Shown: positions 24,455 to 64,000, counted from the first letter of the stretch. The stretch is DNA of 64,000 nucleotides from Trypanosoma brucei (GCA_000002445.1 CP000066.1:1024001-1088000); one strand, 5' to 3'. Notes: generated by a model not told the origin, from the letters alone. Translations and numbers: made by a program.

Positions 24455-24482
24455 ACAAACATATATATATATATATATATAT
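24455..24482. repeat. (AT)n microsatellite in intergenic spacer
   Basis: acatatatatatatatatatatatgt read directly from the sequence. Confidence 0.9.
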
Positions 24483-26340
24483 GTTTATGTATATGTATTT
24501 TTAATATATCTTTCTAATTTCTTCTTTTCTTCAGCGCATATATGTATATAATACATGTGTCTACGTGTGTTCGGCGCGGGCTCGAATTGACCCAACGAAA
24601 GCAACGGGGAAAAATGGGGGAAAAGCAATTGAAAAAGAAAGTAGGGAGGAAACGAAGCAGACAATGAAAAGAAGGAAAACAAAATAAAGCCAACGAAAAA
24701 AGGAAGAGAGGTGAACATGAGGGGATTTCATGGTGGGGAGGGGGAAAAAAGGAATACGCGGCGTAACACCTTCTCTATGAGATCTGCAACGGCAAAAAAA
24801 AAAAAGAAATGGCGCGGAAAAAAAGAAGGGACTGTGACGGATTTGAGTCGTTCGGTTTATTCCTCTATTTTTTTTCTCTCCTCTTCTTATTTTGTTTAAA
24901 GTCTCTTTCTCTCTCTTACTCTCTCTTACTCCTCTCTTCCCCTCTTATTCTTTTTTGTTTTTTTACTTTATATATATTTTCTTGTATCGCATCTCCGCAT
25001 TTCAAAGAGGGTGGAGATGAGCATTTTTTCAGTGATAAACGGAAATAAACGAGGATTATGAACACGGATGATTACAACAAGAGAATAATAAAGAAAACAG
25101 TACGTACCAAAAAGAAAAAAAACAAAAGGCAAAGAGTTGAAAGGAAGAGGAAAGGAGCAGGGATGAGCGGGGAAGGAAAGGAAAAGAAGAAGAGAAGTGC
25201 ACTCATTTGTTGTTAAATTCTTTTAGGCACGAACTGAGCTGATGTTCGGTTTTTTTTTCTACTTTTACATGTTTGTTTCAACATTTTGTTTCGATTTTGA
25301 CTTATAAGTAATTATGTATTTGTGAAGGTTTAGTTGGGCGTGATACGTAAATAAATAAATATATATATATTCGTTTATGTATATATGTATGCGTGTACAC
25401 GTTTATGTGTGTGCACGTAACGCAACAAGTAAAGGAAAAGGGTTGCATTTCATGCGGCTCTCCGGGGGTTCCCCCATTTTCCTTCTTTCTTTCCTCTTGT
25501 ATTTTTTATTTGTTTTTTTCTCTTTTTTTTTCTTTCTCTTTATACCCTCTACTTCATTTCTTTATTTTTATTTATTTACCTATTTTATTTTTACTTTTTC
25601 CAGCCGTATTGTCCGTGCGTCCAAGTCACTTTTCGTTCGGTTCCTGCATCACTGCTTGTGTTATTTCATGAGTGTCTGTTTCTGTTTTCATCCTGTTTAG
25701 TATCATACACTAACCAAATATTTTCTTTCTCATATTTTCATGTATCTATGCATATTCCTACATATATGTCAGCTGCTGGTGGCAACGGGTGGAAGTACCG
25801 AAGACAAATTATGTATCAGAAGTTGTAGTAATGTGAAAAAAAAACAATGATTAGGTAAACACATATCAAAGGAAAAGCGTGTGTGCATGTGCTTCACAAA
25901 CCGTCGCATTTGTGATGATCGCAATTACGCATCACCTCCCCTCTCTACTCAAGCACTTCTTAAGGAGATTTTTTTTTTGTGAGGTTTTCACAAAATGCTA
26001 CTGCGAGAGTTACCGTTGTGCCGCTGCTGTTGTGCAACCTGTCGATATTGCAGCTTTAAATTATACCGTCACATGTGCAAAAATAAACCGGGCATACGCA
26101 TGGGAAGGTTATATGCACTTGGTGGAATGCAACGTGACCGAAGGCTCAAAGCTTTCGTAAATGAAACCATTATCGGTGCGTATATAATTGTATACATATA
26201 TATATATATATATACATACGTGTGTACGAGAGGTGTGTGTGTATCAGTGTGACGAGAGGAATCACTTGCTTCATAGCTATGGTAGCAAGGTGGTGTGTTT
26301 GCAACAGCTGCTACTGTTACTGCTCATGTGACCCGTGTGT

Positions 26341-27542: not shown

Positions 27543-28403
27543 ATGAGTGCAACAGAGGCGGTTGTTGAGCCGAAGGCTCCCGATGTATGCACAGAAGCGA
27601 ATGAGAGACCCCCCACGGAGAGTGGTGTGGCTGCTCCTGTGAAGCGCCTGTTCGACCTTCTTCAGGAAGACTCCAAGGAGCGTGTGGTTCGGTTGCTGAC
27701 GGCCTTTCGTGAACTCACATTGCTGGAGCAGGAGTCACTGGCGCAGGAGATGGGCGTAACACTCCCAAAGGAGGAGAAATGGCGGGCACCGTGTCCTCTG
27801 ATTGCACGGCAGCCGTCTGGTCCGTCGCTGGAAGTGCGGCGCCGGGATCCCAGTTATGTGGCATTGTGTCCGTCTGTATCTTCCGCCCTCCGTGAGTTAG
27901 GATCGAAAGAGGCTGCCCGTCGCCTCCCGGATGCGGACTTGCGGAAGTTGGTGGAGGGGGCTCTGGGAGAGGACGGCGTGTACTTGACGGTTCCCGAGTC
28001 TGATGGAGAAGGGTGTGCTGCTGCTTCCGAGCGGGTGGGAGTGGTGGATGACGGCAAGCCACCGCTGCTGGTGCGCAGCCGCTGTTATCAGGCGCTGCGG
28101 CTTGCACGCGATGAAGAGATCGAGACGGACGCTCAATACACAAGGCCAAGGGTGCTGAATGTCACTGGCATTCCATTGGAAGAAAGTGACGTGTGGGAAT
28201 GGTTTAACTTGCTGGACGTAGCGCGGAACGGTACTGTGGGTGTGGATGCTTTCCTGACGAGTGTCCGTGAGCTTGATCGCGGGTTTGGAACAAGCAGCAA
28301 GGTACAGGAAGCGTTCGAGGATGAATCACGTTCCCTCTCGGTCGATGGGCAGCTCTCTTTTGATAAGTTCGCGTATTTGGTGACACGGTTCTCTAGGTAC
28401 TAA
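27543..28403 (+). CDS. hypothetical protein, 286 aa, first of two identical copies; degenerate EF-hand-like loop near the C-terminus
   Basis: ATG at 27543. An identical 286-aa ORF is present at 30662..31522. The loop-like segment is WEWFNLLDVARNGTVGVDAFLTSV. No other recognisable domain. Confidence 0.6.
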   Translation: MSATEAVVEPKAPDVCTEANERPPTESGVAAPVKRLFDLLQEDSKERVVRLLTAFRELTLLEQESLAQEMGVTLPKEEKWRAPCPLIARQPSGPSLEVRRRDPSYVALCPSVSSALRELGSKEAARRLPDADLRKLVEGALGEDGVYLTVPESDGEGCAAASERVGVVDDGKPPLLVRSRCYQALRLARDEEIETDAQYTRPRVLNVTGIPLEESDVWEWFNLLDVARNGTVGVDAFLTSVRELDRGFGTSSKVQEAFEDESRSLSVDGQLSFDKFAYLVTRFSRY

Positions 28404-30661: not shown

Positions 30662-31522
30662 ATGAGTGCAACAGAGGCGGTTGTTGAGCCGAAGGCTCCC
30701 GATGTATGCACAGAAGCGAATGAGAGACCCCCCACGGAGAGTGGTGTGGCTGCTCCTGTGAAGCGCCTGTTCGACCTTCTTCAGGAAGACTCCAAGGAGC
30801 GTGTGGTTCGGTTGCTGACGGCCTTTCGTGAACTCACATTGCTGGAGCAGGAGTCACTGGCGCAGGAGATGGGCGTAACACTCCCAAAGGAGGAGAAATG
30901 GCGGGCACCGTGTCCTCTGATTGCACGGCAGCCGTCTGGTCCGTCGCTGGAAGTGCGGCGCCGGGATCCCAGTTATGTGGCATTGTGTCCGTCTGTATCT
31001 TCCGCCCTCCGTGAGTTAGGATCGAAAGAGGCTGCCCGTCGCCTCCCGGATGCGGACTTGCGGAAGTTGGTGGAGGGGGCTCTGGGAGAGGACGGCGTGT
31101 ACTTGACGGTTCCCGAGTCTGATGGAGAAGGGTGTGCTGCTGCTTCCGAGCGGGTGGGAGTGGTGGATGACGGCAAGCCACCGCTGCTGGTGCGCAGCCG
31201 CTGTTATCAGGCGCTGCGGCTTGCACGCGATGAAGAGATCGAGACGGACGCTCAATACACAAGGCCAAGGGTGCTGAATGTCACTGGCATTCCATTGGAA
31301 GAAAGTGACGTGTGGGAATGGTTTAACTTGCTGGACGTAGCGCGGAACGGTACTGTGGGTGTGGATGCTTTCCTGACGAGTGTCCGTGAGCTTGATCGCG
31401 GGTTTGGAACAAGCAGCAAGGTACAGGAAGCGTTCGAGGATGAATCACGTTCCCTCTCGGTCGATGGGCAGCTCTCTTTTGATAAGTTCGCGTATTTGGT
31501 GACACGGTTCTCTAGGTACTAA
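30662..31522 (+). CDS. hypothetical protein, 286 aa, copy 2 of the duplicated unit
   Basis: 100% amino-acid identity to 27543..28403; it lies inside the second repeat unit. Confidence 0.6.
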   Translation: MSATEAVVEPKAPDVCTEANERPPTESGVAAPVKRLFDLLQEDSKERVVRLLTAFRELTLLEQESLAQEMGVTLPKEEKWRAPCPLIARQPSGPSLEVRRRDPSYVALCPSVSSALRELGSKEAARRLPDADLRKLVEGALGEDGVYLTVPESDGEGCAAASERVGVVDDGKPPLLVRSRCYQALRLARDEEIETDAQYTRPRVLNVTGIPLEESDVWEWFNLLDVARNGTVGVDAFLTSVRELDRGFGTSSKVQEAFEDESRSLSVDGQLSFDKFAYLVTRFSRY

Positions 31523-42234: not shown

Positions 42235-42555
42235 GATACCTACTGCACCTCTTTTAGTTGTTGCGACGCACGCCATTGCCGTTATTTTAGGCATGATGGC
42301 ATTGTTATTGTCGTTATAGTTCAACAGGAGAAACCTCTTCACCGTGAAGCGATGTTCCTCTTCTTTTTCCCTCTTAACATCGTCAGATTTTTTTTTTTTG
42401 CTCCGCATCACAATAGTGTTTAGGAAGTTTAGCCTCTCCATATTAATTGCTTGACGCAGTCAAACACGCGTTTGAACTTCTGGTGGGTAGAGGTGATAGG
42501 TCCACCGTCCTTTGTTTTTTTGCAGCCTGTAGACAAACCCGTTGCTGCCACGATA

Positions 42556-45500
42556 ATGAATACAAACCGGCCGAACACATCTGGCGTTCCCTCTTCTTCC
42601 TCCACTGCCGGCCCCTTGGCTTTACGGAGCGGAAGCACCGCAGGGGTTGTTGGGGGAACTGACGCTGGTAGAAGCGGCAGCAGATCAATGGATTATAACC
42701 CGTTCTCTCTCATGGATGTTGGGACGGCGAAGATTGGGTTTGAACAATTCCATGGGGTGCCGTCGTCAATGCCGATGCAACAGCAACAGCGCGGGGTGCC
42801 AACAACAGCCACGTCCATGGGCTCTGCTGTTGACTGTCAGCTTCGCAAGTCTTCGGCAGGAACCCAACAAGGAGACCACTCATACTACCAGCAACAGCGG
42901 CAACCTTCTCTGTCCCAACCTCAACAGCGCACGAATCTTTCGCTGGATTTGGCGAGAGTCACCCAGTTGGCATCACAACGCAGCGGCTCAGCCATTACAA
43001 CCACACGACAAGATATCGTGACACCATCCTCCGCGAACCGCTCGGTTTCTCAGAGCTCTGCTCTGGATTTAAAAACCAGGGGGGGCTCTCTAGATACCGT
43101 CACGTCCATGCGCTCTGGAACAGATGGGGAGCCACATGGTAGAGTTGCGAAGCGTTCAGCAATCTTTAGTAACTTCCTCAAAAGGGATCCCCCAGACTTT
43201 TTGAAACCGTCGCCAAACACCTTACTGCGGCGACAAGGGTCAAGCACAGCGGTGACCGCACGTGGGCTTTTTGGTGACCAGTCTCGCTCTGGCAGCACCG
43301 CGACAAACCCAGACGCGCACGTGTCGCGTCCGCAACACCAGGAACAACTACTGGACCCCTCGCCATCGCAAGGGTACTCTCCAGGGTTTGTGCTCTACAC
43401 AGCGAGGGAAAGGGACCGCGTCAAACCTGCATTCTTCAGTCATTCTGCATTGACAGCTCGACCGAGTGCTGAGGATACTTCAACACGGTTTGTTTCATCT
43501 GAGCAGTGTGTTTCCCCCCTCCCGAGCAGCACGAATCAAGCGACAGCTTCGCACCTTCCCCAAGGACCCCCGCTGGGCGTGAACAACCCTGGGGCGACAG
43601 AGCCTCACTTTACTGACAGTGGAAGCGCCTCAACCGTTGTTTCAACGGCCACTGGGACGCATCTGCCCCATGGTTCAGATTCTGTTGTTTCTGCTCCGAA
43701 TGCACTCACCAGTGATTTTCATGTACCCCAAATGGACATAGCCGTGAGAGGTGTGTTGGGAGATACGAGGTTATCTAACGCCACGACATCGTCAGCATCA
43801 CAGAGTCTTGCCTACCTAACTCCAGGTGCTGAGGTTGCTGTCAGCGAAAATTATGCTGAGAAAAACAATATTCTGGTTAGCAGGCCACCTTCAGCTCCTC
43901 ATGCTCACATGCCGTTGCCGGCGGATCCGGGTGTGGGAAGCGTCCTCTCGGCGGACAACGTGGCCATGAATCGGGGTGATGCTCTGGGGCTGCCAATGCC
44001 GCAAGGCATCCCAAATGATGGGTTGAGTCCAAATGGAACCGAAGAAACGGCTTTGGCTCTTCCTCCTCCTCCTTTTCCTGGGTTTGGGCATCCCCATAAG
44101 GTATGCCCCGCTGCTGTTGTGCCTGCCGGTGATGACGTTGCTGCGCCTCATGTAACCTCCGCTACGCACGGCCTTGGTTTCCCGCCCACGGGCCGCCAAC
44201 GGCAGGAGCGGACGGAACACGATACACAGGCTTGTGTGTTTATCGACGGCTTTGACCCGAGCGAAGCCCCCCCAGCTGCGCCGTCCTATGGGGATGCCGT
44301 AGACGGTTCGTCTTCGCAAGAGTGGCACGATGGTTCGCTGCAGGACGCGGTTGCCACAGCGCCTTCTAATGTGGGGTCCGAGGCTTTGCTATTTGAGGGC
44401 CCAACTCAGGCAGGGGAAGTTGGTACTAACATGTGTCCCGTTGAAGAGGGGACATCTCCGGAAGCGCGGCTGCCGGCTTTAGATATGGCTGCTCTCCCTG
44501 TGTCCAGCCGCCGTGAAGGGAAAGGTTGGGGACAACAACATCGTCCACGTGGTGGAGCCCCGTGTTTTGCCGTATTTTCTCCTACGGGCTGTGTTATTGC
44601 AGTGTTTAACGCTCCCAATCCCTCCGTGAAGCCCAGGTTTGTATGCAGTCGTGTCGCGGACATACTTTCTGGGAAGGCGAAAGGTATGAACCCTTCCAAA
44701 GTGGGTGAAGACTATGTAACGACCCTTCGCGTTTCGGCTGCATTCACCCTTAGAAAAATCAATGAAAACAAAGTTCCACTGACGTCTCTCCGCGAAGCCG
44801 TCCAGCAAGTGCCCGACATCCTTCCGCTTCTAAGGGGCGTTTTGTCCTACGCGCTGCGTGACCCGTTGCCTGACTGGCGTAACGGTGGACAGAAGGAGCT
44901 TACCAAAATGCTCTCGGAGGTGGCTGAGCAGGTGCCCCCCTCCAGTGTGATGAACCCTATTCGGCTGTCCGACCCAAATTTGTTGAAGAGGGACCCGGAA
45001 CAGGGTCTGCGGGAGGTGCAACGGTTGTTGCTTATTGGAGAGCGTGAGGCTGCCGTGGGGGTGGCTATGGAGTTTCAGTTATACACGCATGCCATTATTA
45101 TTTCGATGGTGTGCCCCACCAAAGAGCAATACATGGATGTAATCCGTACCGTTGTTGAGAAAGAGTTAAGCCCCCTTTCACCTCTTGCTCACGCCTACTG
45201 TACGTTTAACGAGCTACCGCTTCCTGGATTCGCGAGTTCGCCAACATCTACGTTGCCCAGTGCACCGACGGGAGGGTGTGAGGTTTGCGTTCGGCAGTCC
45301 TGGGTGCAGCACGCGGCACTGTTTGTGTCTAACTTCACTAGGGAAAGTGCGGTGGGCTTGGTACAGCTGGGAGATGCCCTTGTAAAAGAAGGGTTGATTG
45401 ACGAGGCCTATTGTTGTTTTCTGCTCGCTCATCTTACTCCGATGGGAAATGTTGCCCCTCAGCAGCTACCACAACCCCAACAGCAGCACGTCATGAATCT

Positions 45501-46719
45501 TCTTCGTGTGCGACTTGGCGCATTGGGTGGGCACTGCCGTCCTGACGGTGTGCGTGTGGTTCTGACGCCGAAATTGCTGTTTCTAGCTGATGTTGTAGAC
45601 AACATTCGCTGTAACCTTGAAGTGTCTGCACAACCTGCAGCAACGGAAGGGGAGGGTTTAGTGATGCGTCACGGACTTCCCGCTCGCTCGCCTGCCAGCA
45701 AAGTTGTGTTCTGCTATTTGCAAATGTTATGGTTACAGGAGGTGGGTCTGCATGATATGGCGGATCCTTTCATGGCACACACACTCCGGATGGCACCGAC
45801 GTCATCCAAGAACTCGGCACCATTCACTTTGAACCGCCTGCTCGCCTCCGGACCCCCTGTCCCTGCGCCAGCCACTGCAACCGATGCTGCCGTCGCACCT
45901 GTCCCCATTCCCACCCCTGGTACGCCTCAGCCGAAAACGGCTCCACCAGCTCCTGGACTTCTAAACAAAGGGATCGGACCAAGGTTTGGTGCCCAGACGT
46001 CACAAAGAGTACTGCCGCGGATAGGACCAGACGGGTACCGTGTAACCACGATGCCCACTGCCCCGCAGACGTCGCCGCCGGTGCCAATGCTAGCAGGAGC
46101 GTTTACGCCCAACGCACCGGGAGGCGCCCAGACCGCAGGCTCGTCCATACCGCCACCGCCTGCCTCATTCCAGTCAAAAGTAGTGTCTACTGCGCCACCT
46201 CCTCCACCTCTTTCGTGCCAGGTGAAATCAGTCCCTGAAGGCGGTGCGGTAGAGAGTGAACCTACCAACCCGAACTCGGCCAGTTCCTCTTCCACTTCGT
46301 TCCCTGCTGCGCCACCCACTACCGCTCGCGGCCGTCCCGCTGAGCCTGGCCCAACTCAAGATCCCGGAAACAACGAGCGAACACAAGAGCCAACGAAGCA
46401 GCAGAGACAACAGCCGCCCCGCTCAGGCTCTCTTGGTGCCCTCGCCAGTTTCTTGTTCCGGCGCAGCGGCTCCAAAGACAACGAAGCGAAAAAGGACGAA
46501 CCAAAGAAGATGATCATTGACACTGAGAAGCCTCCTAAGTTTGACCCCACGAGGGGTTGCTATCTCTTTCCCGAGTCTGAAGAGGATAAGAAAGTGGCAG
46601 AGATGATCAAGGCGGGTCCTATGATGCGATTTTCCGTGAAGCAGCAAGCCCCGCAGGGACCGGTTAACCGCCGAATGCCCGTAAGGACGAAATATGTGGA
46701 CACATTTAACTCCTCCTGA
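42556..46719 (+). CDS. Sec16-like ER-exit-site scaffold protein (~1387 aa, Pro/Ser/Gln-rich with a central conserved domain)
   Basis: The track start at 42451 is TTG; the first ATG is 42556 (MNTNRPNTSG...), preceded by a T-run and AG. Central blocks APCFAVFSPTGCVIAVFNAP, LLLIGEREAAVGVAMEFQLYTHAIIISMVCP and GDALVKEGLIDEAYCCFLLAH resemble the Sec16 central conserved domain. They parallel the VKFGFGGKL, LLLSGxKEEAL ... LWxHALxLAS and FCYLLA-type motifs as I recall them. Flanks are disordered and proline-rich. Confidence 0.5.
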   Translation: MNTNRPNTSGVPSSSSTAGPLALRSGSTAGVVGGTDAGRSGSRSMDYNPFSLMDVGTAKIGFEQFHGVPSSMPMQQQQRGVPTTATSMGSAVDCQLRKSSAGTQQGDHSYYQQQRQPSLSQPQQRTNLSLDLARVTQLASQRSGSAITTTRQDIVTPSSANRSVSQSSALDLKTRGGSLDTVTSMRSGTDGEPHGRVAKRSAIFSNFLKRDPPDFLKPSPNTLLRRQGSSTAVTARGLFGDQSRSGSTATNPDAHVSRPQHQEQLLDPSPSQGYSPGFVLYTARERDRVKPAFFSHSALTARPSAEDTSTRFVSSEQCVSPLPSSTNQATASHLPQGPPLGVNNPGATEPHFTDSGSASTVVSTATGTHLPHGSDSVVSAPNALTSDFHVPQMDIAVRGVLGDTRLSNATTSSASQSLAYLTPGAEVAVSENYAEKNNILVSRPPSAPHAHMPLPADPGVGSVLSADNVAMNRGDALGLPMPQGIPNDGLSPNGTEETALALPPPPFPGFGHPHKVCPAAVVPAGDDVAAPHVTSATHGLGFPPTGRQRQERTEHDTQACVFIDGFDPSEAPPAAPSYGDAVDGSSSQEWHDGSLQDAVATAPSNVGSEALLFEGPTQAGEVGTNMCPVEEGTSPEARLPALDMAALPVSSRREGKGWGQQHRPRGGAPCFAVFSPTGCVIAVFNAPNPSVKPRFVCSRVADILSGKAKGMNPSKVGEDYVTTLRVSAAFTLRKINENKVPLTSLREAVQQVPDILPLLRGVLSYALRDPLPDWRNGGQKELTKMLSEVAEQVPPSSVMNPIRLSDPNLLKRDPEQGLREVQRLLLIGEREAAVGVAMEFQLYTHAIIISMVCPTKEQYMDVIRTVVEKELSPLSPLAHAYCTFNELPLPGFASSPTSTLPSAPTGGCEVCVRQSWVQHAALFVSNFTRESAVGLVQLGDALVKEGLIDEAYCCFLLAHLTPMGNVAPQQLPQPQQQHVMNLLRVRLGALGGHCRPDGVRVVLTPKLLFLADVVDNIRCNLEVSAQPAATEGEGLVMRHGLPARSPASKVVFCYLQMLWLQEVGLHDMADPFMAHTLRMAPTSSKNSAPFTLNRLLASGPPVPAPATATDAAVAPVPIPTPGTPQPKTAPPAPGLLNKGIGPRFGAQTSQRVLPRIGPDGYRVTTMPTAPQTSPPVPMLAGAFTPNAPGGAQTAGSSIPPPPASFQSKVVSTAPPPPPLSCQVKSVPEGGAVESEPTNPNSASSSSTSFPAAPPTTARGRPAEPGPTQDPGNNERTQEPTKQQRQQPPRSGSLGALASFLFRRSGSKDNEAKKDEPKKMIIDTEKPPKFDPTRGCYLFPESEEDKKVAEMIKAGPMMRFSVKQQAPQGPVNRRMPVRTKYVDTFNSS

Positions 46720-47343: not shown

Positions 47344-50300
47344 ATGATGGTGTGCCTTACAATTTTCCTTGATATCTCTTTCCGTATTTGTTTACCCGTT
47401 TTCAATGCGCACTACAGTAAAAGAAGGAAAGGGGGATCGGGGATGCCTATCCCAACGGTAACCATGGGGCCAGACCCGATTTCTGAGCCACTCCTGCATG
47501 ACGCCGACAGGGACGAGATTCCATTCTGTGTAGCTCGTAATATTGGGCGGGAAATGAGACGTGGGTCCAGCAGCGACAGCGGCAATCGTTGGAGACAGGT
47601 GGAACCCGTGTTGGAGTTACAGATTGAAACGCTCTCTACGACGTCAGCGGGGTGGTTTCTGAACTCGTGGTATGGCGCCCTTGTGGTGGCGCTTGTCCTG
47701 CAATCTTTGGTCTCTTTTCAGTGGGGGATGGTGAATATATGTGACAGCTCATCGGTAAGCATTCGCAACCTGGATTCGTGGAGAAGTTCTTGCGTGGAAA
47801 GGTACGAGTATCAGTCGGCTGACCTTAACTGTTCGGGGACTAAGGTTCTGGTGCAGGCATGTGATCCACCGCCACACTCTTCGCATCGTGCAATGCTCCC
47901 ATCTCTTCTAGGATGCGGAGCGGTACCGTTATCAGCACCATCTTACGCGGAGGACTCACCGGGCCCTAATCACGACGGGATGAGCATGCGGAGTGGAGGC
48001 TATATTCCAAAGCAACAACAGCAGCGTCTTTTCAACCTACGGTGGGTAGACCGAAACGTGATTGATATACCGGCAAGTAAGGCCAACCGCTTTCCGCGCG
48101 TCGTTTTCAGTTTAGCATCGCCGCAGGACGCTATTTCTGGAGATATTCCCTTTAAGACTTATCAGTTGCAGGTTGTTCTGGAAAAGTTTCCGGTGCATGC
48201 GCCTTCGGAAGGAGATATAAATGTTAACAGTGGTACCAGCCGGCCGGCAACCACTGGCGTGTACCGATACAACACAACAACCACGTGTTTTCGGACCACA
48301 CCACGATGCTCTTCAGTGGTGTTGCCGCAGGATGTCGTGGTGGTTGGCGGGAATTCGAGAATCACATTAACCATCATCGGTGCTGTGGAGGAGCTGGCGT
48401 CTGTCGCTTCCATGTCCTCTGTTGGTATTGCGTTTCAGCGTTCTTTCTACACCATCTTTACAATTGCATGTCGCTACACCCTCATTGTGATCTCCGGTGT
48501 TCATTTGATCTTCTTTCTTTACCGAATTCGGCGGACGCAGACAATCTATGAGCATTACTGGGTGACGGCCTTGAACGTGGCACTGATACTTTACCTTGAC
48601 CCATTTTTCGCCGCCGGAGTTGACGACGAAAACGGTGTAGAACTTTATCGCTTCTTTGAGTACCACATGCCGAATTATTTCATTGCCTTTTTGAACTGTT
48701 TTATTTTTGCGCTTGTTGGAGCCTCCATTAACGCTTCTGGGGAGGTAGGAGAGACTAAAAGGAGACTGAAGGGGGAAACCGTTCCAGGGTGTGACGCTCC
48801 TGTGCTTGAGGAACCGTCGCCTCGCCCGGGTCGGCCACTAGCGACCGTTCCTCCCGATATGCCTCCTTCTTCACCTGGTGGCGATCCAAGGGATTTGCAA
48901 CGAAAGGAAAAAAATTCATGGACAAGTGAGGCTCATGACAGTTCTGTATTACTTGCCTCCCCTGATGGGGATCGTGCGGCACTCGTGCGACGACGTGGTA
49001 TGCCTCTGTGGGTTACCGTTTCAATCACTTACTACTTCGTTATTCTCGTAGGTCTTGACGTGGGGAGGGCGTTCGTTGAGAATTGGGATTGGGGAACCGT
49101 TGCGGATTGTGCTACATTCTGTTGCCGTTACCTTGCGTCAATGTTCTACACAATGCTCCTGTTGCTTGTTTTTGCGTCGAACGTGCTACTTTTATGGCTC
49201 AAACGAAATCTGGGCAGACAGCCCTACCTAGAGACACGACCACGGCAGCTGGCATGCCGTGTGTTTATCTTCGTGTTTGCTAGTGCTATGGTCTATTTCG
49301 TTGTCCAGGCTGTTCTTATCGATCTACTCTACCCTCATATTGTGCGGATTGTCGTCTATCAGCCATTCAGTCAGCTCGCCCCCGTGATGGTTTCATCTTG
49401 CTTTGTGAGTCACATAACATTTGTGTACACACCCACCACTGCCTCACGGAGGGTGCCCATACGGCCAAACAACCCCATGTGGCGCCGTGTCGTTTGGTCA
49501 CGGCAGTGGTATCAGTGGCTTCAGTTTCACGGTGGCATATTGTACATATTTCACAACGAAGAGCAGGAACGATACTTCAACTTTTTACAGAACAAGCAGA
49601 GGTTGGCGAAAGTCCTTCACCGTCGGTCGGGTCGCGTCCCTGTCGCCACTGAGCACGAGGGTGTAGGGCCCATTTGCTCCACGGCAGAGTGTGTTTGGAA
49701 TGGTGACGGACCACTAGGGACATACGATGCGGAGAGCTCTGATAGTTCAGACTCCAGTGGCGGCGAAAGCAGCTTTTCTTATAATAGCAGTCACAATGAA
49801 GATGATGATGTTGCGTCAAGCGGACGTGGTTCGCGGCGTCGCAACTGGTCGCGCATTCGGAGGGGTGTTTCGACACTGTTCGAACGTGCGGAGTGTCGGT
49901 TCGTGGAGAAATCTGCTTTGCTTCTGGATTCTCTCGAGGGGGCCATTCTTGACCCTTTGCAGTCTCTCCAACTTGGTGGCAATAGGCGTGTGCCCTTTTT
50001 TAACCTCGAGGCCGCGATTGATTGCCTGAATCTGTCGTGGGAGGCATACGCACCTCTGTGTAGTGATGTAGATGCTTCGAGGCGAGATGCTGATGGCGGG
50101 GGGAATGGCACCTCATCTTATTGCGCTGACTGCACTCCCTGTGCGTTTCCCCCAGAGACAAGGGGAGAAGGCGATAGTGATAAAAGCACCTTAGACGAGC
50201 GGGCATTTTTAGAAGGGGCTGTGGACAGCAGTGCAGTGACGACCGTCGATAACAGGCCCATTGATGGTGATTTGCAATCTTTTACAGTTGCGAGGGAGGG

Positions 50301-51192
50301 GTCGTCCACCAGTGTGGGACCTGCTATGTGTACCAAACAATACGGTTATAAGCCAATCGCTGTGTTTGAGGCACTTGATGTAGTGGCTGTTTGTGCTGTC
50401 ATGGACACTGAATTTTTGCACCATCGTGGCAAGGTCCCTCGAATCGTTATCGCATTCCGAGGAACAGCAAATATGAGCAACGCCAGGGAGAACATTCGTG
50501 TTCGGCAGCGTCCGTGGCGGGAAGTAGACGGTGTCCGGCAGTGGTGGGGCCTCACGAAGCGTGCAAGAGTCCACTCGGGTTTCCTTAACATTTGGATCTC
50601 ACTGAAGCCTGCTGTGCTTCATACACTTCACAGGTTCTTAAAGGAGAATTCTTCCACTGTTTACCGTGTGTTTTGCACGGGCCACAGCATGGGGGGTGCT
50701 GTGGCTTGTCTTTGTGCCTACAGTGTGCGGCGTATGCTGCGGGAGATAGAATACCCCTTGGATGAGGTAACGGTTTACACGTTTGGTCAGCCCCCGATGG
50801 GGAACGCAGCGTTTCAAACCGCTTACGACAAGGCGATTCCCCGAACGTTTCGTGTTGTAAACGAGAGTGACGCGGTGTCCCTCTTTTCCCTGTTCGGGGG
50901 CACGCACGTTGGCACCGAAGTGGATATTGACCGCCATGGCAATTACATCTGTAAGCCCATGTTTATTGAGATGTTATTCAGACCCACGGGAGGGAAGGGA
51001 TTTGCTTTAAAAAATCATACCCTTGCTGCCTATGCCCAATCTCTTAATGCCGTTGCGGATCGGAACAGCGGTAGGGAGTGTAAGGTGCGCTGCCTGCAGC
51101 CGTATGTGCGTGATGTTGTAGACCCATCACTTAGCGCTCTTTCCAGTGCTGCCGCCAACGTCTCTGTTGAACACCAAGCTGCGAACGTGTAA
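47344..51192 (+). CDS. polytopic membrane protein with C-terminal class-3 (fungal-type) lipase domain, paralog 1
   Basis: ATG at 47344. About 8 predicted TM helices precede a Ser/acidic linker. The Lipase_3 core has the GHSMGG nucleophile elbow (VFCTGHSMGGAVACLCAY), a candidate Asp in VVNESD and a candidate His in DIDRHGNYICK. Confidence 0.8.
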   Translation: MMVCLTIFLDISFRICLPVFNAHYSKRRKGGSGMPIPTVTMGPDPISEPLLHDADRDEIPFCVARNIGREMRRGSSSDSGNRWRQVEPVLELQIETLSTTSAGWFLNSWYGALVVALVLQSLVSFQWGMVNICDSSSVSIRNLDSWRSSCVERYEYQSADLNCSGTKVLVQACDPPPHSSHRAMLPSLLGCGAVPLSAPSYAEDSPGPNHDGMSMRSGGYIPKQQQQRLFNLRWVDRNVIDIPASKANRFPRVVFSLASPQDAISGDIPFKTYQLQVVLEKFPVHAPSEGDINVNSGTSRPATTGVYRYNTTTTCFRTTPRCSSVVLPQDVVVVGGNSRITLTIIGAVEELASVASMSSVGIAFQRSFYTIFTIACRYTLIVISGVHLIFFLYRIRRTQTIYEHYWVTALNVALILYLDPFFAAGVDDENGVELYRFFEYHMPNYFIAFLNCFIFALVGASINASGEVGETKRRLKGETVPGCDAPVLEEPSPRPGRPLATVPPDMPPSSPGGDPRDLQRKEKNSWTSEAHDSSVLLASPDGDRAALVRRRGMPLWVTVSITYYFVILVGLDVGRAFVENWDWGTVADCATFCCRYLASMFYTMLLLLVFASNVLLLWLKRNLGRQPYLETRPRQLACRVFIFVFASAMVYFVVQAVLIDLLYPHIVRIVVYQPFSQLAPVMVSSCFVSHITFVYTPTTASRRVPIRPNNPMWRRVVWSRQWYQWLQFHGGILYIFHNEEQERYFNFLQNKQRLAKVLHRRSGRVPVATEHEGVGPICSTAECVWNGDGPLGTYDAESSDSSDSSGGESSFSYNSSHNEDDDVASSGRGSRRRNWSRIRRGVSTLFERAECRFVEKSALLLDSLEGAILDPLQSLQLGGNRRVPFFNLEAAIDCLNLSWEAYAPLCSDVDASRRDADGGGNGTSSYCADCTPCAFPPETRGEGDSDKSTLDERAFLEGAVDSSAVTTVDNRPIDGDLQSFTVAREGSSTSVGPAMCTKQYGYKPIAVFEALDVVAVCAVMDTEFLHHRGKVPRIVIAFRGTANMSNARENIRVRQRPWREVDGVRQWWGLTKRARVHSGFLNIWISLKPAVLHTLHRFLKENSSTVYRVFCTGHSMGGAVACLCAYSVRRMLREIEYPLDEVTVYTFGQPPMGNAAFQTAYDKAIPRTFRVVNESDAVSLFSLFGGTHVGTEVDIDRHGNYICKPMFIEMLFRPTGGKGFALKNHTLAAYAQSLNAVADRNSGRECKVRCLQPYVRDVVDPSLSALSSAAANVSVEHQAANV

Positions 51193-52070: not shown

Positions 52071-55000
52071 ATGGAGAGGAGACAGGCGGGCGGGAATTTG
52101 CTGGACTCTATGAATTCTGCATCAGTGCACGTGAACGACCTTCCAGCTGAGTTCCCCCGTTTTCCACCGCAAACAATTAGCACGGGCGTTGCTTCTCAGA
52201 GTCACCGCAAAAAGTCACCGGCTTCGGGACCCCCGATGAACGGGAGTCATTCTTTTTCTCGTCATACAAACACAGGAACTGTACCTGCCATACCGCGCGC
52301 CCCACGGCGGTGCCGACTTACAAACAACGCACCATTCCCGGACCCCGCCTGCGTGGACTGCCAAAGGCATAGCTGCTCAAGACATTCAGGCGGCAGCACG
52401 TTGGCGGGGGGAGTGGAGCTGCAGATTGAAGGGCTTACGCGCTTCGTTTGGCGGTGTATTTACTTTTTATGGTTGGCAGCCCTTGTCGCCGGTATAGTTT
52501 TGCAATCCTTGCCCTCTATTACATGGAGGGTGCTGGACATCTGTGGAAGGGATGCGCCTGATATGTGGAAATATGGGACATGGAATAGCAACTGTGCGAC
52601 CATAGAGCTGGAGGACAGACACACCGATACCTACCGTGTTCAGTGGAATGGGCGACCATATTCTGTGGACTTTGGTGACCCGTTGCTGCGGTTCCGTAGC
52701 CTCGTAATTAACCTGGCCAGTCCTGACGACTGGGAGGTTTTCCATCCTGACGAGCGCAGGTTCACACTGAGGGTTGCGATTCCCTTTATGGAGGAGAACA
52801 GCAACTGGTCTACTGCCCCGTTGCCGATAGTGTGCCGTCGTGGGGACGATCGATGCGTTTACATAAACCTGCCGCCGGGTGCGGTTTTGAATGACACTGG
52901 TGGAGGACGCGTGTCTCTATCTCTTAGCGATGTCCCCGGAAGTATCGCTCGAAATATAAATAACTCAGCGGTTGGTATCCTTTTTCAAGGGCGTGCTTAC
53001 GCCCTTACAGTGTTGATTTGGCGCTACATAGCCCTTACAATAACGGTTTTGCATGCTATACGGTTCGTAGTGAACCTGAAATACAACAACAGCCTCTATG
53101 AACAGTGGTGGGTTTTGGTGCTGCTGTTGGCGTCTGTGTTGTATCTCAACCCCCTCACCGCCCTTGCCATATCTCCAGATCGGCTTCCACTGCCGCTGGA
53201 GTTCCTTGAACTTCACGTACCATGGTGGTTTGTAGCGGTGGTGGTGAGCTATATGTTTTCTGTTATTACTGCGTCCATGCCGCGCGCTGCGAATCCCACG
53301 AAACAGGAAGGCGCTAAAAACCTGGGATGCCTTAGCCGCATGAAGGCCTGCTTCTGCCGCAGCCGCAGCATATATGACCCTCCGTTGTGGACGAAGGTAG
53401 TGGGAGTGCTTTTTATCATTATAGCCATTGGGCTTGACATAGCAGTGGCCTGGCGGTGCTGCTCTGCAACGCTACATGGGAGGGGGTCGGGTAAGAAAAT
53501 CTACATTTACCTTCTCTGTTCTCTTTTCGGCTTTGGGTCGCTGGTCTGTTGTATTATGCTCTACCGTCTACGTCGGAGCATGTCAAAGAAATCATACCTG
53601 GATTCGAGACCTCAGCAACTTGCCTGCCGTGTTTTCATGTTTATGTTCTTTACGGCCATCATTTTCAGTATTACACAATTCGCTCTGTTTTACGTGCTCG
53701 ATTTCAGAATCCCGGGTATGTTGGCGTGGCAACCACTTATACAGCTACCGGCGTTGTTGGTATGGCCAGTTTTGGTCAATGTCATGACTCTAATATACAC
53801 TACCCGTCACCGCCCAGAGACGGTTCCCGTTCATCCGCGAGACACGCGCTGGAAAGAAAGTGTCTGGCCTGACGATTGGTACCGATGGCTTGTTCGCCAT
53901 GGCGGCAGCATGTACATTTTTCATACAGAGAAGGAGGAGGCCTCCTTCAATTGGAAACAACTGGAGTACCGCGTACGGCGGTACCTTGTGAGGTTAAAGA
54001 GAAGGGGTAGTGTGCATAACTTATCTCTCCTTCTGCAGAGCATACCCAATGACTCTTCATCTCCACCGGTTGAGGGGCCGAGTGACCCCTCGATAAATTA
54101 TACCATTATGTGCTCCGTTCACTCCCGTCCCCAGGATATAGAGTTCTGGAAGGGTCTGAGAGAGTCGATTTGTAATCGAGGCGCAGCCGAGATTGTCAAC
54201 ATGGACATGACGTCCACGTGCTTCCTACCGTACGTTGAAGCAGGGAGGGAAAACGATTTGGGGCCCGAGAGACCGTCAGGCGCATCCCAAGTGATGAGAC
54301 AAAATGTTGGCAGGGAAGGAGGTGGGTCCCGAGCTCCGCTGCTAGAAAACGATGGGGGAGCTCTCAACGGTTCCGTGGCGTTGAGGTTGAGCTCCACCAC
54401 CGGGGATGCACCTCCCGGTGACGGGGAGCGTCGTCTGGGGTCTGTGGATGATCATTCAGAGGATAGCGGCGACGATGGAGGGTCAACTAATAACCCAAAG
54501 AGTGTGTGGCAAGCACTCCGTGGTGTAATTTCCGCGTCGGTGAGGGGAGCCGGGAGGAACTTATTCGAACGACCTGCTCATGCGTTTGAGCGTGCCGAAA
54601 CCTATCTTTTGGATGCTGTTCAGCAAAGGATGCACGAACCCCTGTACCTCCCGTTTTTCAATCTTGAGACAGCCATTGACTGCTTCAACATAGCGTTTGA
54701 ATCGTACAATTGGAAGGGACAGTCGCACGCCCGGGCCCAAGAAAGAAAGGTTGGAACCTCGGGCCGCTGCCGCGGCTCTTCAAACTACCGTTCAAATGCT
54801 CGCGAATCCGCTGCTTACCCCCGGGAAACGGACCCAGACGCGTGCAGCACGTCGCAAGGTGATGTTGAGATGCGCAAATTTTGCCCTAGTACAGAACAAC
54901 AGTCTGTGGCAGCCACTCCAGACCATAACGGGACGCCCACTATCGATGTGGAACAATACGGTTATAAGCCAATCGCTGTGTTTGAGGCACTTGATGTAGT

Positions 55001-55769
55001 GGCTGTTTGTGCTGTCATGGACACTGAATTTTTGCACCATCGTGGCAAGGCCCCTCGAATCGTTATCGCATTCCGAGGAACAGCAAATATGAGCAACGTG
55101 AGGGAGGACATCAAGATGCGCCGCCGTGCTTGGGATGAAATGAAGACCGATAGGGACAATGCGTCTCTGAAGTCGAGTTGCTGCTGGGAACCAACGGTCC
55201 ACTCCGGATTTTTGGAGATCTGGGAAGCACACCAAACTTCTATTGAAGAAAAACTTGGCGGGTTCTTAAAGGACAATTCTTCCACTGTTTACCGTGTGTT
55301 TTGCACGGGCCACAGCATGGGGGGTGCTGTGGCTTGTCTTTGTGCCTACAGTGTGCGGCGTATGCTGCGGGAGATAGAATACCCCTTGGATGAGGTAACG
55401 GTTTACACGTTTGGTCAGCCCCCGATGGGGAACGCAGCGTTTCAAACCGCTTACGACAAGGCGATTCCCCGAACGTTTCGTGTTGTAAACGAGAGTGACA
55501 CATTTGCAACGTTCCGGCTTTACGGCACGCAAGTTGGCACCGAAGTGGATATTAACCGCCATGGCAATTACATCTGTAAGCCCACGTATATGGAGCAACG
55601 GTGCCACCCAATGAAGAATAAGGTGTTTGGAATCGAGGGCCATCAGGTGAAGTCTTATGCCCGCTCGCTCAATGCCTTGGCGCTCGACACATCCTGCAAG
55701 ATACGTGCTTCCGGCGATCCAGAGGCGTCATATGTGGCCGAGCCTGGACGCGAGCCGGATGCCATGTAA
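52071..55769 (+). CDS. polytopic membrane protein with C-terminal class-3 lipase domain, paralog 2
   Basis: ATG at 52071. Same architecture as 47344..51192. The N-terminal membrane region is about 35-40% identical; examples are QLACRVFMFMF versus QLACRVFIFVF and WYRWLVRHGGSMYIFH versus WYQWLQFHGGILYIFH. The lipase core is identical and contains GHSMGG. Confidence 0.8.
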   Translation: MERRQAGGNLLDSMNSASVHVNDLPAEFPRFPPQTISTGVASQSHRKKSPASGPPMNGSHSFSRHTNTGTVPAIPRAPRRCRLTNNAPFPDPACVDCQRHSCSRHSGGSTLAGGVELQIEGLTRFVWRCIYFLWLAALVAGIVLQSLPSITWRVLDICGRDAPDMWKYGTWNSNCATIELEDRHTDTYRVQWNGRPYSVDFGDPLLRFRSLVINLASPDDWEVFHPDERRFTLRVAIPFMEENSNWSTAPLPIVCRRGDDRCVYINLPPGAVLNDTGGGRVSLSLSDVPGSIARNINNSAVGILFQGRAYALTVLIWRYIALTITVLHAIRFVVNLKYNNSLYEQWWVLVLLLASVLYLNPLTALAISPDRLPLPLEFLELHVPWWFVAVVVSYMFSVITASMPRAANPTKQEGAKNLGCLSRMKACFCRSRSIYDPPLWTKVVGVLFIIIAIGLDIAVAWRCCSATLHGRGSGKKIYIYLLCSLFGFGSLVCCIMLYRLRRSMSKKSYLDSRPQQLACRVFMFMFFTAIIFSITQFALFYVLDFRIPGMLAWQPLIQLPALLVWPVLVNVMTLIYTTRHRPETVPVHPRDTRWKESVWPDDWYRWLVRHGGSMYIFHTEKEEASFNWKQLEYRVRRYLVRLKRRGSVHNLSLLLQSIPNDSSSPPVEGPSDPSINYTIMCSVHSRPQDIEFWKGLRESICNRGAAEIVNMDMTSTCFLPYVEAGRENDLGPERPSGASQVMRQNVGREGGGSRAPLLENDGGALNGSVALRLSSTTGDAPPGDGERRLGSVDDHSEDSGDDGGSTNNPKSVWQALRGVISASVRGAGRNLFERPAHAFERAETYLLDAVQQRMHEPLYLPFFNLETAIDCFNIAFESYNWKGQSHARAQERKVGTSGRCRGSSNYRSNARESAAYPRETDPDACSTSQGDVEMRKFCPSTEQQSVAATPDHNGTPTIDVEQYGYKPIAVFEALDVVAVCAVMDTEFLHHRGKAPRIVIAFRGTANMSNVREDIKMRRRAWDEMKTDRDNASLKSSCCWEPTVHSGFLEIWEAHQTSIEEKLGGFLKDNSSTVYRVFCTGHSMGGAVACLCAYSVRRMLREIEYPLDEVTVYTFGQPPMGNAAFQTAYDKAIPRTFRVVNESDTFATFRLYGTQVGTEVDINRHGNYICKPTYMEQRCHPMKNKVFGIEGHQVKSYARSLNALALDTSCKIRASGDPEASYVAEPGREPDAM

Positions 55770-61980: not shown

Positions 61981-62012
<32 letters not shown>
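61981..62012. repeat. (AT)n microsatellite in intergenic spacer
   Basis: catatatatatatatatatatatatatatatgtatatatg read directly from the sequence. Confidence 0.9.
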
Positions 62013-62019
<7 letters not shown>

Positions 62020-64000
62020 GTTTGTTTTAATTCACAAACACGGCAAAGGCAGTTTCAAGGAAAACTCAATCTGAATTTTGTTTGGTTATCATCATTTTCA
62101 TCATGAGATGCGAAGCGTTTTATGCGTGTAAATACCTTCAGTTTGTTTTTTCTTTTACGTTAGTAAAGTCCAGCGAGGAAAAAATAATAATAATTCATAA
62201 GCGGAAAGTATGTACACATATATATATATATATATTTATATACGTGTGTGCGCTTTTGTGTATGTCTACGCGTTGGAGGCGTAGTTTTTTTTTCCTTCTT
62301 TAATGATTTTGTTCTTAGTATTTTGTGTCTGGATGTGTGCTTGTGGTGCATACCGTGACAGTTTCTTTTCCAACCTCCCTTTTCTCTCTGCGTGTCTGCG
62401 TGTGCGTGCTTGTCTTACTGGTGGTGACGAGTTTTGGGTGAGGATAGAGGGACAAAAGGAATGTTTGATGGATTTGTGGGGTTTCAGCTTTCTTCTTTAC
62501 TTGTTTTTTTTTCTTTTCTTCGTTTTTTATTCATTCTATTCCTTTAGTTCATCCATGTCCTCTACTCGTCTCTCCCACAGTTTTCTTCCGCAATGTTTGT
62601 AATCCTTCGCACCTCCCTCTCTTCGAGGCCCACCCCAGTCTCTATCGCATACTTTTTCCCGCTGGTTATCTTAGTTCCCTTTTCTCTCTTTCTTTCTTTC
62701 TTTCTTTTTTTCCCTCCTCCTCCCTCTTCCCTCTCTTTCCTGTCCCTTTCTCTTTTTCTTTTTAGTTTTTTTTATTTTTCGTTTCGTGGTGTCAATGCCG
62801 GTGGTGCAGCTGAGGATTGAGAGGCCCCGGTAGCGCTTGCGGGAGGTGGGATTTCTCTCGTGTGGTGGCGACCCAACATATATATTTATATATACAAAAA
62901 TAAGCTGAGAGGAGGGACACACACGCAAAAAAAAAGATGAAAGATAAAGTGGGGGATTTTACAGATAGCGGAGGAAATGAGTGGGGTGCAATGGTTGGAA
63001 GGGAGAGGGGGGGGGGCGGGGGGAGCGGAGTTGCTTTTCGTAGTACAGTTGTGATTACTTCTGTTGTTATTTCCCTGCCGCTTACTCGCTGGGTATTTTG
63101 ACCATTTTTCTTCTATTGTTTTACCTTTTTTTTTTCATTCTCCTTCCTCGTTTACCGTTTTGTTTCGTTCGTTTCTCCCCCATGTTTTCTGTGTGACTGG
63201 TATCAGTAGTGTTAAATGTTCTTTTTTTTTTCTTTTTGAAATATTGGTTACTGCAGTGACCATCCAAAACGGAGTTATTAGGGAAATCGAGAATAATGGG
63301 GAAGTAGAGGAAAATGACCAGAAAATGGACACAGACACGTACACACGTACACACAGACACATATACATAAATACCTTAAATATAGGTGGTGTGGAAGAAA
63401 ATGAGTGTGAGAAGGAGGAATAGTGAGGTTGTGGGACACGATGGGGATATGGTAGTGAATGGAGAGGTAATGTTTGCGTGGAGGTTGTGAGAGAGGTTAA
63501 AAAGTTTTGGACGTAAGATTGAAGTGGGATAAGTGGCATTTGGTCCATCAGTGGGTGATGGTCACCTTCTTACAACATTGTCACACACAGGTGCTTCTGG
63601 TTATACATGCACACATATATATATGTGTGTGTATGTGGTTGTTTTTGGGTGTTATGCACTTTCGCACTTGTATGTTCTTTGCCTTTATTAAGCATTTTTT
63701 ACTTGTCTATTTTCTTCCGCTACCCTCAGGAGGGAACTATTTAATTAGACTGACGGTTGAGGCGCATCAACCCCTTGCACGCTGGCCGCAGGATTTCGTG
63801 TACCATAGCCCACTTTTTTCCTCCTTTCTTTCCTCTCATCCTGATATGTATTCTCATGCTAGTCCTTCCCGCGACTTCGCTTTCTTTTCCCATCTGGAGC
63901 ACCATGCTCAACCCACCCGTTGCATGTGCATTACCATATTCCCACGCTGTATCAAACTATTGCCCACCTCTCCGTCCCTTTCTTTTTGCTTTCCCCCCAC

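Follow-up and report, generated by a model that had tools for sequence, protein, structure and literature searches.

Two tandem Trypanosoma brucei proteins that join a Wntless/TMEM181-like (GOST) membrane module to a class-3 lipase domain

Two neighboring chromosome 3 genes of T. brucei TREU927 encode proteins that are best read, at a probability of roughly 0.6, as membrane-anchored, cytosol-facing class-3 acyl hydrolases assembled from two known modules, with the GOST module serving localisation and possibly regulation. The two domains are identified, the transmembrane (TM) layout is 1 + 7, the catalytic triad is conserved, and the fusion is conserved across Euglenozoa. In the N-terminal half, of the GOST (GOLD-domain seven-TM) type, a cytosolic N-terminus would lead into TM1, followed by a luminal/extracellular beta-sandwich with disulfide bonds and then by a 7TM bundle resembling that of GPCRs, and the C-terminal half would run from a Trp-rich segment through a variable acidic linker to a cytosol-facing Lipase_3 alpha/beta-hydrolase. 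The window analysed is a stretch of 64,000 nucleotides (CP000066.1:1024001-1088000), in which the two copies announced by an earlier sequence-only reading are found in tandem, the first one (p1) as an ORF without interruption and the second as its paralogue (p2):

47344-51192, plus strand: p1 ORF, a GOST-lipase fusion of 1282 aa (XP_843978.1 / Q57WC2, "lipase, putative").
52071-55769, plus strand: p2 ORF, a paralogous GOST-lipase fusion of 1232 aa (XP_843979.1 / Q57WC3, Tb927.3.3870, "lipase domain protein").
47344-47442, plus strand: doubtful hydrophobic N-terminal extension of p1, aa 1-33.

The extension is doubtful as protein because it is conserved in no orthologue. It contains a pyrimidine tract plus AG, and the T. 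equiperdum member of the cluster has 1249 aa, which is the length expected with a start at Met34. The first 33 hydrophobic codons of p1 are thus probably outside the real protein. The existing database names are uninformative or misleading, namely "lipase, putative" and "Wnt-binding factor required for Wnt secretion". Since Euglenozoa have, to our knowledge, no Wnt, the latter is a misnomer for the fusion proteins. Both domains are already listed in automated Leishmania protein names. Our literature search found no study of a GOST-lipase fusion, and no enzymatic, localisation, or knockout work on p1 or p2; the sole mention concerns the Tb927.3.3870 transcript, which is 3.1-fold higher in cultured bloodstream than in procyclic forms.

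The membrane module of the two proteins consists of the following parts:

47656-47727, plus strand: TM1 of p1 (aa ~105-128), N-in, with an invariant ELQIE motif just before it (hydropathy, AlphaFold2).
47728-48447, plus strand: luminal beta-sandwich of p1, located where WLS/TMEM181 have their GOLD domain (aa 129-368; AlphaFold2, fold comparison).
48448-49431, plus strand: GPCR-like 7TM bundle of p1, TM2-TM8 (aa 369-696; Pfam WLS-like_TM at aa 368-460).
52407-53975, plus strand: GOST module of p2 (aa 113-635), with TM1, a shorter luminal domain, the 7TM bundle, and the Trp-rich segment.

The order of TM1, luminal beta-sandwich, and seven-TM bundle is present in hydropathy and in the AlphaFold2 secondary structure. 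The earlier description of one TM near residue 100, a Cys-bearing loop, and seven further TM helices holds, as Kyte-Doolittle hydropathy and the AlphaFold2 model agree on it, with the single TM at about aa 100-128. The luminal domain of p1 has 240 aa and 7 Cys, including the conserved pairs C133/C150 and C315/C322, and a disordered insert at aa ~159-223. The helices TM2-TM8 lie at aa ~369-392, 405-425, 446-464, 555-575, 597-619, 641-660, and 676-696, with a disordered cytosolic loop at aa 465-554 and a fusion-specific ICL3 motif, PYLETRPRQLACR, at aa 627-639.

The N-terminal half is homologous to Wntless/TMEM181 (GOST), a membership that is assigned mainly from profile and fold evidence. At the sequence level, the WLS-like_TM signal is marginal for the two proteins: p1 scores 30.4 bits against Pfam WLS-like_TM (PF06664; cut-off 28.3) over profile positions 3-96 of 247, and p2 alone gives no match at E<=0.01. 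The same Pfam profile matches 9 of 19 family N-domains, with a best E of 2.7e-13. In 1.84e9 representative sequences, the N-domain profile recovers TMEM181-like proteins at E 6e-8 to 9e-4, and these are bona fide members with WLS-like_TM at E 1e-23 to 1e-60 plus TMEM181_GOLD. Profile-level comparison of the N-domain by hhalign reaches 98.5% probability (E 1.9e-15), and the model of the N-terminal half has a whole-length fold match to a solved GOST family member. The TMEM181_GOLD Pfam profile, present in the stand-alone relatives, matches neither p1 nor p2 nor any of the 19 N-domains; at the GOLD position, a beta-sandwich is predicted and a C..(6)..C motif is aligned by hhalign. As the membrane domain is a WLS/TMEM181 homologue, the "Cys-containing loop" of the sequence-only reading becomes a folded luminal domain.

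The fusion family comprises 61 proteins of at least 400 aa that were retrieved by the N-domain profile and carry a lipase elbow. Trypanosomatids, Papus, diplonemids, and euglenids all contribute members, so that the suggestion of a possibly kinetoplastid-specific enzyme fails. These sequences mark the fusion as an old and obligate one throughout Euglenozoa. We know of no GOST protein described with a C-terminal enzyme domain.

Between the bundle and the lipase, p1 has two segments of very different conservation:

49432-49605, plus strand: juxtamembrane segment on the cytosolic side, Trp-rich and conserved (aa 697-754), VPIRP..W..VW..WYQWL..HGG.LYIF..E.E..F.
49606-49944, plus strand: variable acidic Ser/Asp-rich linker (aa 755-867), poorly aligned between orthologues and outside both structure models.

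The WY(Q/R)WL..HGG.(L/M)YIF motif named earlier is located at aa 722-736 of p1 and aa 603-617 of p2 and is almost invariant among homologues, and the Ser/Asp-rich stretch is found at aa ~786-830 of p1. The Trp-rich segment belongs to the fusion family, and those stand-alone TMEM181-like proteins that were examined lack it. This segment and the ICL3 motif PYLxxRPQQLAxR occur in 45-47 of 61 fusion proteins versus none of 9 true stand-alone TMEM181-like proteins. For most fusion-family hits, the best-conserved stretch lies at profile positions ~430-632, corresponding to TM5-TM8, ICL3, and the juxtamembrane segment, whereas true TMEM181-like proteins match the profile at positions ~135-349 only. 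When compared to the Wnt-secretion receptor Wntless (WLS/GPR177/Evi) and to TMEM181, p1 and p2 are divergent in this region, which carries the fusion-specific motifs.

The lipase is predicted to lie on the cytosolic side. Near-membrane Lys and Arg residues number 24 on the predicted cytosolic side versus 5 on the luminal side, 10 of 12 Cys and both N-x-S/T sites fall in predicted luminal loops, and the WLS fold implies N-in/C-in.

The conservation of TM5-TM8, ICL3, and the juxtamembrane segment, with motifs in 0 of 9 stand-alone proteins, raises the possibility of a ligand-gated receptor-lipase, in which a lipid or lipidated ligand on the luminal/extracellular side would bind to the luminal beta-sandwich and the 7TM cavity, and ICL3 and the Trp-rich segment would relay the resulting conformational change to switch the lipase on or off. 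Such a cavity has precedents, as a lipidated hairpin is bound in the 7TM cavity of WLS (PMC9711517) and the PDB holds a TMEM87A structure with bound PE (8hsi). The ligand is purely hypothetical, however, and GOST proteins studied to date are trafficking factors and not signalling receptors (PMC9711517). The linker is poorly aligned and varies in length across the fusion family, which argues against rigid coupling of the modules. On balance, gating by a ligand is a tentative reading that we consider possible at about a third of the weight given to a membrane-anchored hydrolase.

A receptor-lipase would have an analogue elsewhere in protists. The GPCR-PIPK (RpkA-type) fusions of Dictyostelium and oomycetes join a seven-TM receptor-like module to a cytosolic lipid-modifying enzyme and are a protist precedent for 7TM-enzyme coupling, without implying homology with p1 and p2. 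They differ in having another 7TM class, which lacks a GOLD domain and TM1, and a PIP kinase instead of a lipase.

A further use of the cavity would be substrate channelling, with a lipid caught in the GOST 7TM cavity and passed straight to the fused lipase in one catalytic machine. The cavities of GOST proteins are open to the bilayer and hold acyl chains or phospholipid (PMC9711517), and the ancient, obligate fusion would suit such a machine. On the other hand, the known cavities face the luminal/outer leaflet (PMC9711517), on the side opposite to the predicted cytosolic position of the lipase, so that a direct catalytic role of the 7TM cavity is not obvious; the linker, moreover, is long and poorly conserved. 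Channelling is accordingly very improbable.

The C-terminal half contains the following features:

49993-50049, plus strand: conserved N-terminal helix of the p1 lipase domain (aa 884-902), PFFNLEAAIDCLNLSWEAY.
50050-50331, plus strand: variable disordered insert that separates this helix from the core (aa 903-996; structure model).
50332-51063, plus strand: class-3 lipase alpha/beta-hydrolase core of p1 (aa 997-1240; Pfam Lipase_3 at aa 1035-1180).
54948-55700, plus strand: class-3 lipase core of p2 (aa 960-1210).
50686-50688, plus strand: candidate catalytic Ser1115 of p1 (GHSMGG).
50869-50871, plus strand: candidate catalytic Asp1176 of p1 (VVNESD).
51016-51018, plus strand: candidate catalytic His1225 of p1 (KNHTLAAY).
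55314-55316, 55497-55499, and 55641-55643, plus strand: triad of p2, S1082, D1143, and H1191 (EGHQVKSY).

Both paralogues are far over the Lipase_3 (PF01764) cut-off of 22 bits in Pfam, with 96.5 bits for p1 (aa 1035-1180, E 1.7e-27) and 92.3 bits for p2 (aa 998-1144, E 3.3e-26). The first proposal, a class-3 lipase joined to a polytopic membrane domain, is borne out, and the triad is intact. The predicted lipase model (pLDDT 76 as a whole, >90 in the core) has an alpha/beta-hydrolase fold that fits solved class-3 lipases. Foldseek matches it at E 1e-13 to 1e-9 to fungal class-3 lipases, FaeA, mono/diacylglycerol lipases, and plant PLA1 (3ngm, 6qpp, 4tgl, 1usw, 5ch8, and 7x0d); the nearest solved relatives include TAG lipases, a feruloyl esterase, MAG/DAG lipases, and PLA1.

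Rhizomucor miehei lipase is matched by phmmer at E 1e-11, and S1115 and D1176 align with its Ser144 and Asp203. The Ser is invariant in 61 homologues and the Asp in 59, which upholds both residues as originally picked. The His is a different case: H1198 (50935-50937), taken from DIDRHGNYICK, is rejected as the catalytic residue because His stands there in just 20 of 61 homologues, versus 56 of 56 family members for H1225. The R. miehei pairwise alignment ends before H1225, which is placed by conservation and spacing. The Asp-to-His distance is 49 aa in p1, 48 aa in p2, and 54 in R. miehei lipase. In an alignment including plant and bacterial lipases, the Ser and Asp are invariant and the His nearly so; within the family, 56-61 members show little or no variation in the FRGT oxyanion-hole motif, the GHS(L/M)G(G/A) elbow, D1176, and H1225. 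On this conservation, the triad is S1115-D1176-H1225 in p1 and S1082-D1143-H1191 in p2, and the annotation of the catalytic His should become H1225 and H1191, respectively.

EDS1 and PAD4 are also among the fold matches of the lipase model, and some class-3 lipase folds, including these two, are non-catalytic. The lipase-like domain could then work by binding or scaffolding, in the manner of plant EDS1/PAD4/SAG101, within what is essentially a GOST trafficking receptor, in line with the trafficking work of GOST relatives (PMC9711517). However, the elbow, Asp, His, and FRGT are strictly conserved in kinetoplastids, diplonemids, and euglenids, as expected of an active hydrolase, and a pseudoenzyme is hardly credible.

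The fold of the p1 core, its GHSxGG elbow and FRG(S/T) motif, the placing of Asp and His, and a lid-type segment from FRGT to HxGF are shared with class-3 lipases of fungi (Rhizomucor miehei, Gibberella zeae, Thermomyces) and with DAD1-like PLA1s of plants. Those enzymes consist of a single domain of ~270-420 aa and are soluble, secreted, or plastid-targeted, whereas in p1 a membrane module of 750 aa anchors the core, and a 94-aa disordered insert follows the N-terminal helix.

The sequence-only reading had likened the proteins to the sn-1 diacylglycerol lipases (DAGL alpha/beta), of which they would be divergent relatives with additional TM helices. In DAGLs, the regulatory loop sits between the acid residue and the His; the 49 aa of p1, similar to the fungal lipases, leave no room there for such a loop, and the only long insert of p1 (aa 903-996) precedes the first core strand. 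DAGLs combine a four-TM domain with an intracellular catalytic domain into which the regulatory loop is inserted (bioRxiv 10.1101/2025.04.17.649373). The gross logic is shared, as a polytopic N-terminal anchor precedes an intracellular Lipase_3 with Ser-Asp-His, and this part of the proposal stands, with cytosolic placement predicted for p1 and p2. The four-TM domain and the regulatory loop are absent from both; in place of a 4-TM bundle without luminal domain, the anchor is homologous to WLS/TMEM181, with 8 TM and a luminal domain. Moreover, none of the 32 lipase-core matches is named DAGL (a word-index search that compares DAGLs by name, not sequence), and among named relatives, generic Lipase_3 proteins of plants ("lipase-like"), oomycetes, and bacteria come closest, along with fungal lipases. 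Compared with DAGL by description and names, p1 and p2 are read as an analogous solution and not the same family, and a divergent DAGL is unlikely.

A membrane-anchored class-3 hydrolase would cut acyl esters of glycerolipids at the cytosolic face of its host membrane. The data leave the substrate class unconstrained; the candidates are DAG, phospholipid, or TAG, probably attacked at sn-1 as in other class-3 lipases. The GOST module would set the residence of the enzyme, its relatives being trafficking proteins of the Golgi/endosome/plasma-membrane route, and the ICL3 motif and Trp-rich segment may let it modulate the lipase. Between the paralogues, the catalytic core would be homogenised and the differences would lie in the lid region and the GOST module, a pattern suggestive of distinct regulation or location rather than distinct chemistry.

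For parasitology, p1 and p2 are two uncharacterised membrane lipases, one reportedly higher in bloodstream forms, and they have no close human counterpart with the same architecture. GOST proteins (Wntless, TMEM181, TMEM87, GPR107/108/180) are widespread, and their molecular role is poorly understood beyond Wnt secretion. In organisms that have no Wnt, the union of a Wntless/TMEM181-type module with what looks like an active lipase would tie this fold to lipid metabolism. T. brucei, with its genetics, lipidomics, and activity-based probes, is a tractable system for the function of the 7TM bundle and beta-sandwich. If the proteins were receptor-lipases, they would be, as far as we know, the first enzyme-coupled GOST proteins, and since Euglenozoa lack Wnt, this would hint at lipid sensing or handling as the original task of the Wntless/TMEM181 lineage.

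The window comes from chromosome 3 of Trypanosoma brucei brucei TREU927. Every ORF of at least 250 aa in it lies on the + strand, as is expected for a kinetoplastid polycistronic unit. Both copies of the lipase gene that the sequence-only reading had counted are present:

47344-51192, + strand: p1, 1282 aa, 100% identical to XP_843978.1/Q57WC2, named 'lipase, putative'
52071-55769, + strand: p2, 1232 aa, tandem paralogue of p1, XP_843979.1/Q57WC3, named 'lipase domain protein'

One transcriptome paper gives 'lipase domain protein' the gene ID Tb927.3.3870 and reports a 3.1-fold higher level in cultured bloodstream forms relative to procyclic forms (PMC2771046). The upstream copy, p1, is presumably Tb927.3.3860, and the literature search on either gene returned nothing beyond this table entry for Tb927.3.3870.

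Directly upstream of p1 lies an ORF at 42451-46719 (+), 1422 aa as listed, whose true start is probably further in because the listed one is TTG. It contains a Sec16 Sec23-binding TPR domain (PF12931, E 1.6e-14) and, judged by its sequence, probably represents the Sec16 orthologue of T. brucei. Two ORFs of equal length (286 aa) at 27543-28403 (+) and 30662-31522 (+), 3.1 kb apart, may be another tandem duplication. The AT-rich dips at 8001-10000, 12001-14000, 22001-26000 and 62001-64000 (GC 0.36-0.42 vs ~0.50 elsewhere) are presumably long intergenic or UTR stretches.

The first 33 codons of p1 (MMVCLTIFLDISFRICLPVF...; window 47344-47442) are missing in every orthologue, the cluster member from T. 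equiperdum has the 1249 aa expected from a Met34 start, and a pyrimidine-rich tract with a terminal AG lies inside the 5' end of the ORF at ~47356-47417. The true start may therefore be Met34 (ATG at 47443) or Met41. The hydrophobic aa 2-20 were rejected as a signal peptide or a ninth TM helix, since no orthologue has this stretch and the T. equiperdum length fits Met34.

Hydropathy and an AlphaFold2 model of the p1 membrane half (aa 87-754, pTM 0.71) agree on one TM helix at ~105-128, a 240-aa Cys-rich segment folded in the model as a beta-sandwich, and seven more TM helices (~369-696). This is the arrangement of one helix, a Cys-containing loop and about seven helices proposed from the sequence, and the WY(Q/R)WL..HGG..YIF segment and Ser/Asp-rich linker described with it are also present. 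The membrane half of p1 and p2 is a module of the GOST (GOLD-domain seven-TM) family, of the Wntless (WLS)/TMEM181 type (family as defined in PMC9711517), and not an elaborated DAGL (sn-1 diacylglycerol lipase) four-helix anchor as had been suggested. This assignment is based on the following evidence. The Pfam WLS-like_TM (Wntless-like transmembrane domain) model matches p1, barely over the cut-off. When 1.84 billion representative proteins were searched with a profile built on the N-terminal half (alignment A2), 81 matched. Nearly all of the longer matches also have a homologous lipase domain, and the weakest significant matches, 450-500 aa long, are stand-alone proteins; they belong to Amoebozoa, Diphylleia and a stramenopile. 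By sequence, the stand-alone proteins are unambiguous TMEM181/Wntless-family members, with WLS-like_TM matches at E 1e-23 to 1e-60 and TMEM181_GOLD in most. Profile-profile comparison of the fusion family with this group gave 98.5% probability (E 1.9e-15) over a region that starts at the end of the luminal domain, contains a C-x6-C motif common to both groups and continues through TM2-TM4, and 9 of 19 fusion-family N-domains match WLS-like_TM individually. Used as query in a word-index search for homologues, the N-domain profile returned one protein, against 81 in the exhaustive representative search. Searched by sequence against the PDB, the same profile hit only spurious cytochrome-oxidase-subunit-4 entries in a low-complexity loop; WLS in the PDB was recovered by fold only.

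The proposed Lipase_3 domain is confirmed in both proteins by Pfam matches far over threshold (p1 aa 1035-1180, E 1.7e-27; p2 aa 998-1144, E 3.3e-26). The p1 lipase model (aa 868-1262) has pLDDT >90 throughout the core, and its fold matches are fungal class-3 lipases, feruloyl esterase A, mono/diacylglycerol lipases and plant PLA1s. The only long insert of this half (p1 aa 903-996) is disordered and precedes the first core strand. Two members of the triad proposed earlier stand: Ser of GHSMGG and Asp of VVNESD fall on Ser144 and Asp203 in the alignment with Rhizomucor miehei lipase; in the established numbering these are triad residues of that enzyme. The third, H1198 of DIDRHGNY, is ruled out, as just 20 of the 61 family members have His there. 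The invariant His (56/56) is H1225 of KNHTLAAY (p2 H1191); with plant and bacterial Lipase_3 proteins in the alignment it is nearly invariant, and it lies 49 residues after the Asp, compared with 54 in the Rhizomucor enzyme. Strict conservation of the FRGT oxyanion-hole motif, elbow, Asp and His argues for an active hydrolase at the level of sequence, and a pseudoenzyme is unlikely.

DAGL enzymes have a regulatory loop between Asp and His, whereas p1 and p2 have no insertion at this place. Outside the family, the closest sequence relatives with a name are 'lipase-like' proteins of plants and Lipase_3 proteins of oomycetes and bacteria (~30-38% identity), and none of the 32 homologues that a word-index search retrieved with the lipase core is named DAGL. 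Membership of p1 and p2 in the DAGL family is thus unlikely, judged by the anchor homology, the absent loop and these nearest named relatives. The original observation itself was largely correct.

Predicted cytosolic loops contain 24 membrane-proximal basic residues, compared with 5 in luminal loops, while predicted luminal segments hold 10 of 12 Cys and both N-x-S/T sequons. Together with the Wntless fold, this distribution points to an N-in/C-in topology, which would place the Trp-rich juxtamembrane segment (p1 aa 697-754), linker and lipase in the cytosol; the inverted topology is unlikely. TM5-TM8 and the juxtamembrane segment form the best-conserved stretch in most family members, and true TMEM181-like proteins match the luminal-domain/TM2-4 part only. 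In a crude motif scan, 45 of the 61 fusion proteins have the ICL3 motif R-P-Q-Q-L-A (from the longer p1 motif at aa 627-639, within the 7TM bundle) and 47 have WYxWL..HGG, with neither in the nine stand-alone TMEM181-like proteins. As both co-occur with the lipase, they appear to be the likeliest places for a functional interface with it.

The GOST modules of p1 and p2 are only ~27-33% identical in protein sequence. The p2 module shares 46-58% identity with p2-type proteins found elsewhere in the representative library (P0009-P0011), so that sequence comparison dates the duplication as old. The lipase cores share identical nucleotide runs:

p1 50336-50482 and p2 54952-55098, + strand: 99+47 nt, FRGT strand region
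p1 50647-50871 and p2 55275-55499, + strand: 225 nt, Ser1115 to Asp1176

The FRGT and Ser-to-Asp stretches are separated by ~165 nt of strong divergence in the lid region (aa ~1048-1101). The sequence pattern is that of patchy, mosaic gene conversion between p1 and p2, which homogenises the catalytic core and leaves the lid and GOST module distinct.

The members of the fusion family that were sampled belong to trypanosomatids (Trypanosoma, Leishmania, Phytomonas), Papus, diplonemids (Diplonema, Lacrimia, Namystynia, Artemidia, Rhynchopus, a Hemistasia-type transcript) and euglenids (Entosiphon, Euglena longa). The fusion is therefore ancient within Euglenozoa and not kinetoplastid-specific, as had been thought possible. 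Leishmania and several unnamed members (P0014, P0016, P0018-P0020, P0045, P0047) are far longer (1700-2700 aa); their luminal domain and the stretch between the modules contain large insertions, and the N-terminus is extended by 220-300 aa in some. The T. congolense IL3000 orthologue is in two records (P0006 and P0102): a protein of 992 aa has the GOST module and no lipase core, and TCIL3000_3_2480 (282 aa) is lipase-only, with 73% identity to the core of p1. The split is probably an assembly or annotation break and not a real fission. The automated UniRef/NCBI names of Leishmania orthologues, 'Wnt-binding factor required for Wnt secretion/Lipase (Class 3), putative', carry both domains, so the pair is already visible in databases; no paper discussing the combination was found in the literature.

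The 7TM cavity is unlikely to pass lipid directly to the lipase, since known GOST cavities open toward the luminal or outer leaflet (PMC9711517) and the lipase lies on the opposite side, behind a linker that is long and little conserved. Of the readings that remain, a ligand-gated receptor-lipase is the most interesting, though a rather improbable one. A phospholipase role in GPI fatty-acid remodelling was considered, as we know of no identified enzymes for this step in T. brucei, but the family also occurs in free-living diplonemids and euglenids and the present data contain no link to GPI. The GOST-lipase fusion is a new, apparently unstudied combination of two known kinds. Related GOST proteins travel in a cycle between Golgi, endosomes and plasma membrane. 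As a membrane-anchored class-3 acyl hydrolase facing the cytosol, p1 or p2 would hydrolyse glycerolipids at the cytosolic leaflet of the compartment where the GOST module resides, and this module would provide placement and possibly regulation.
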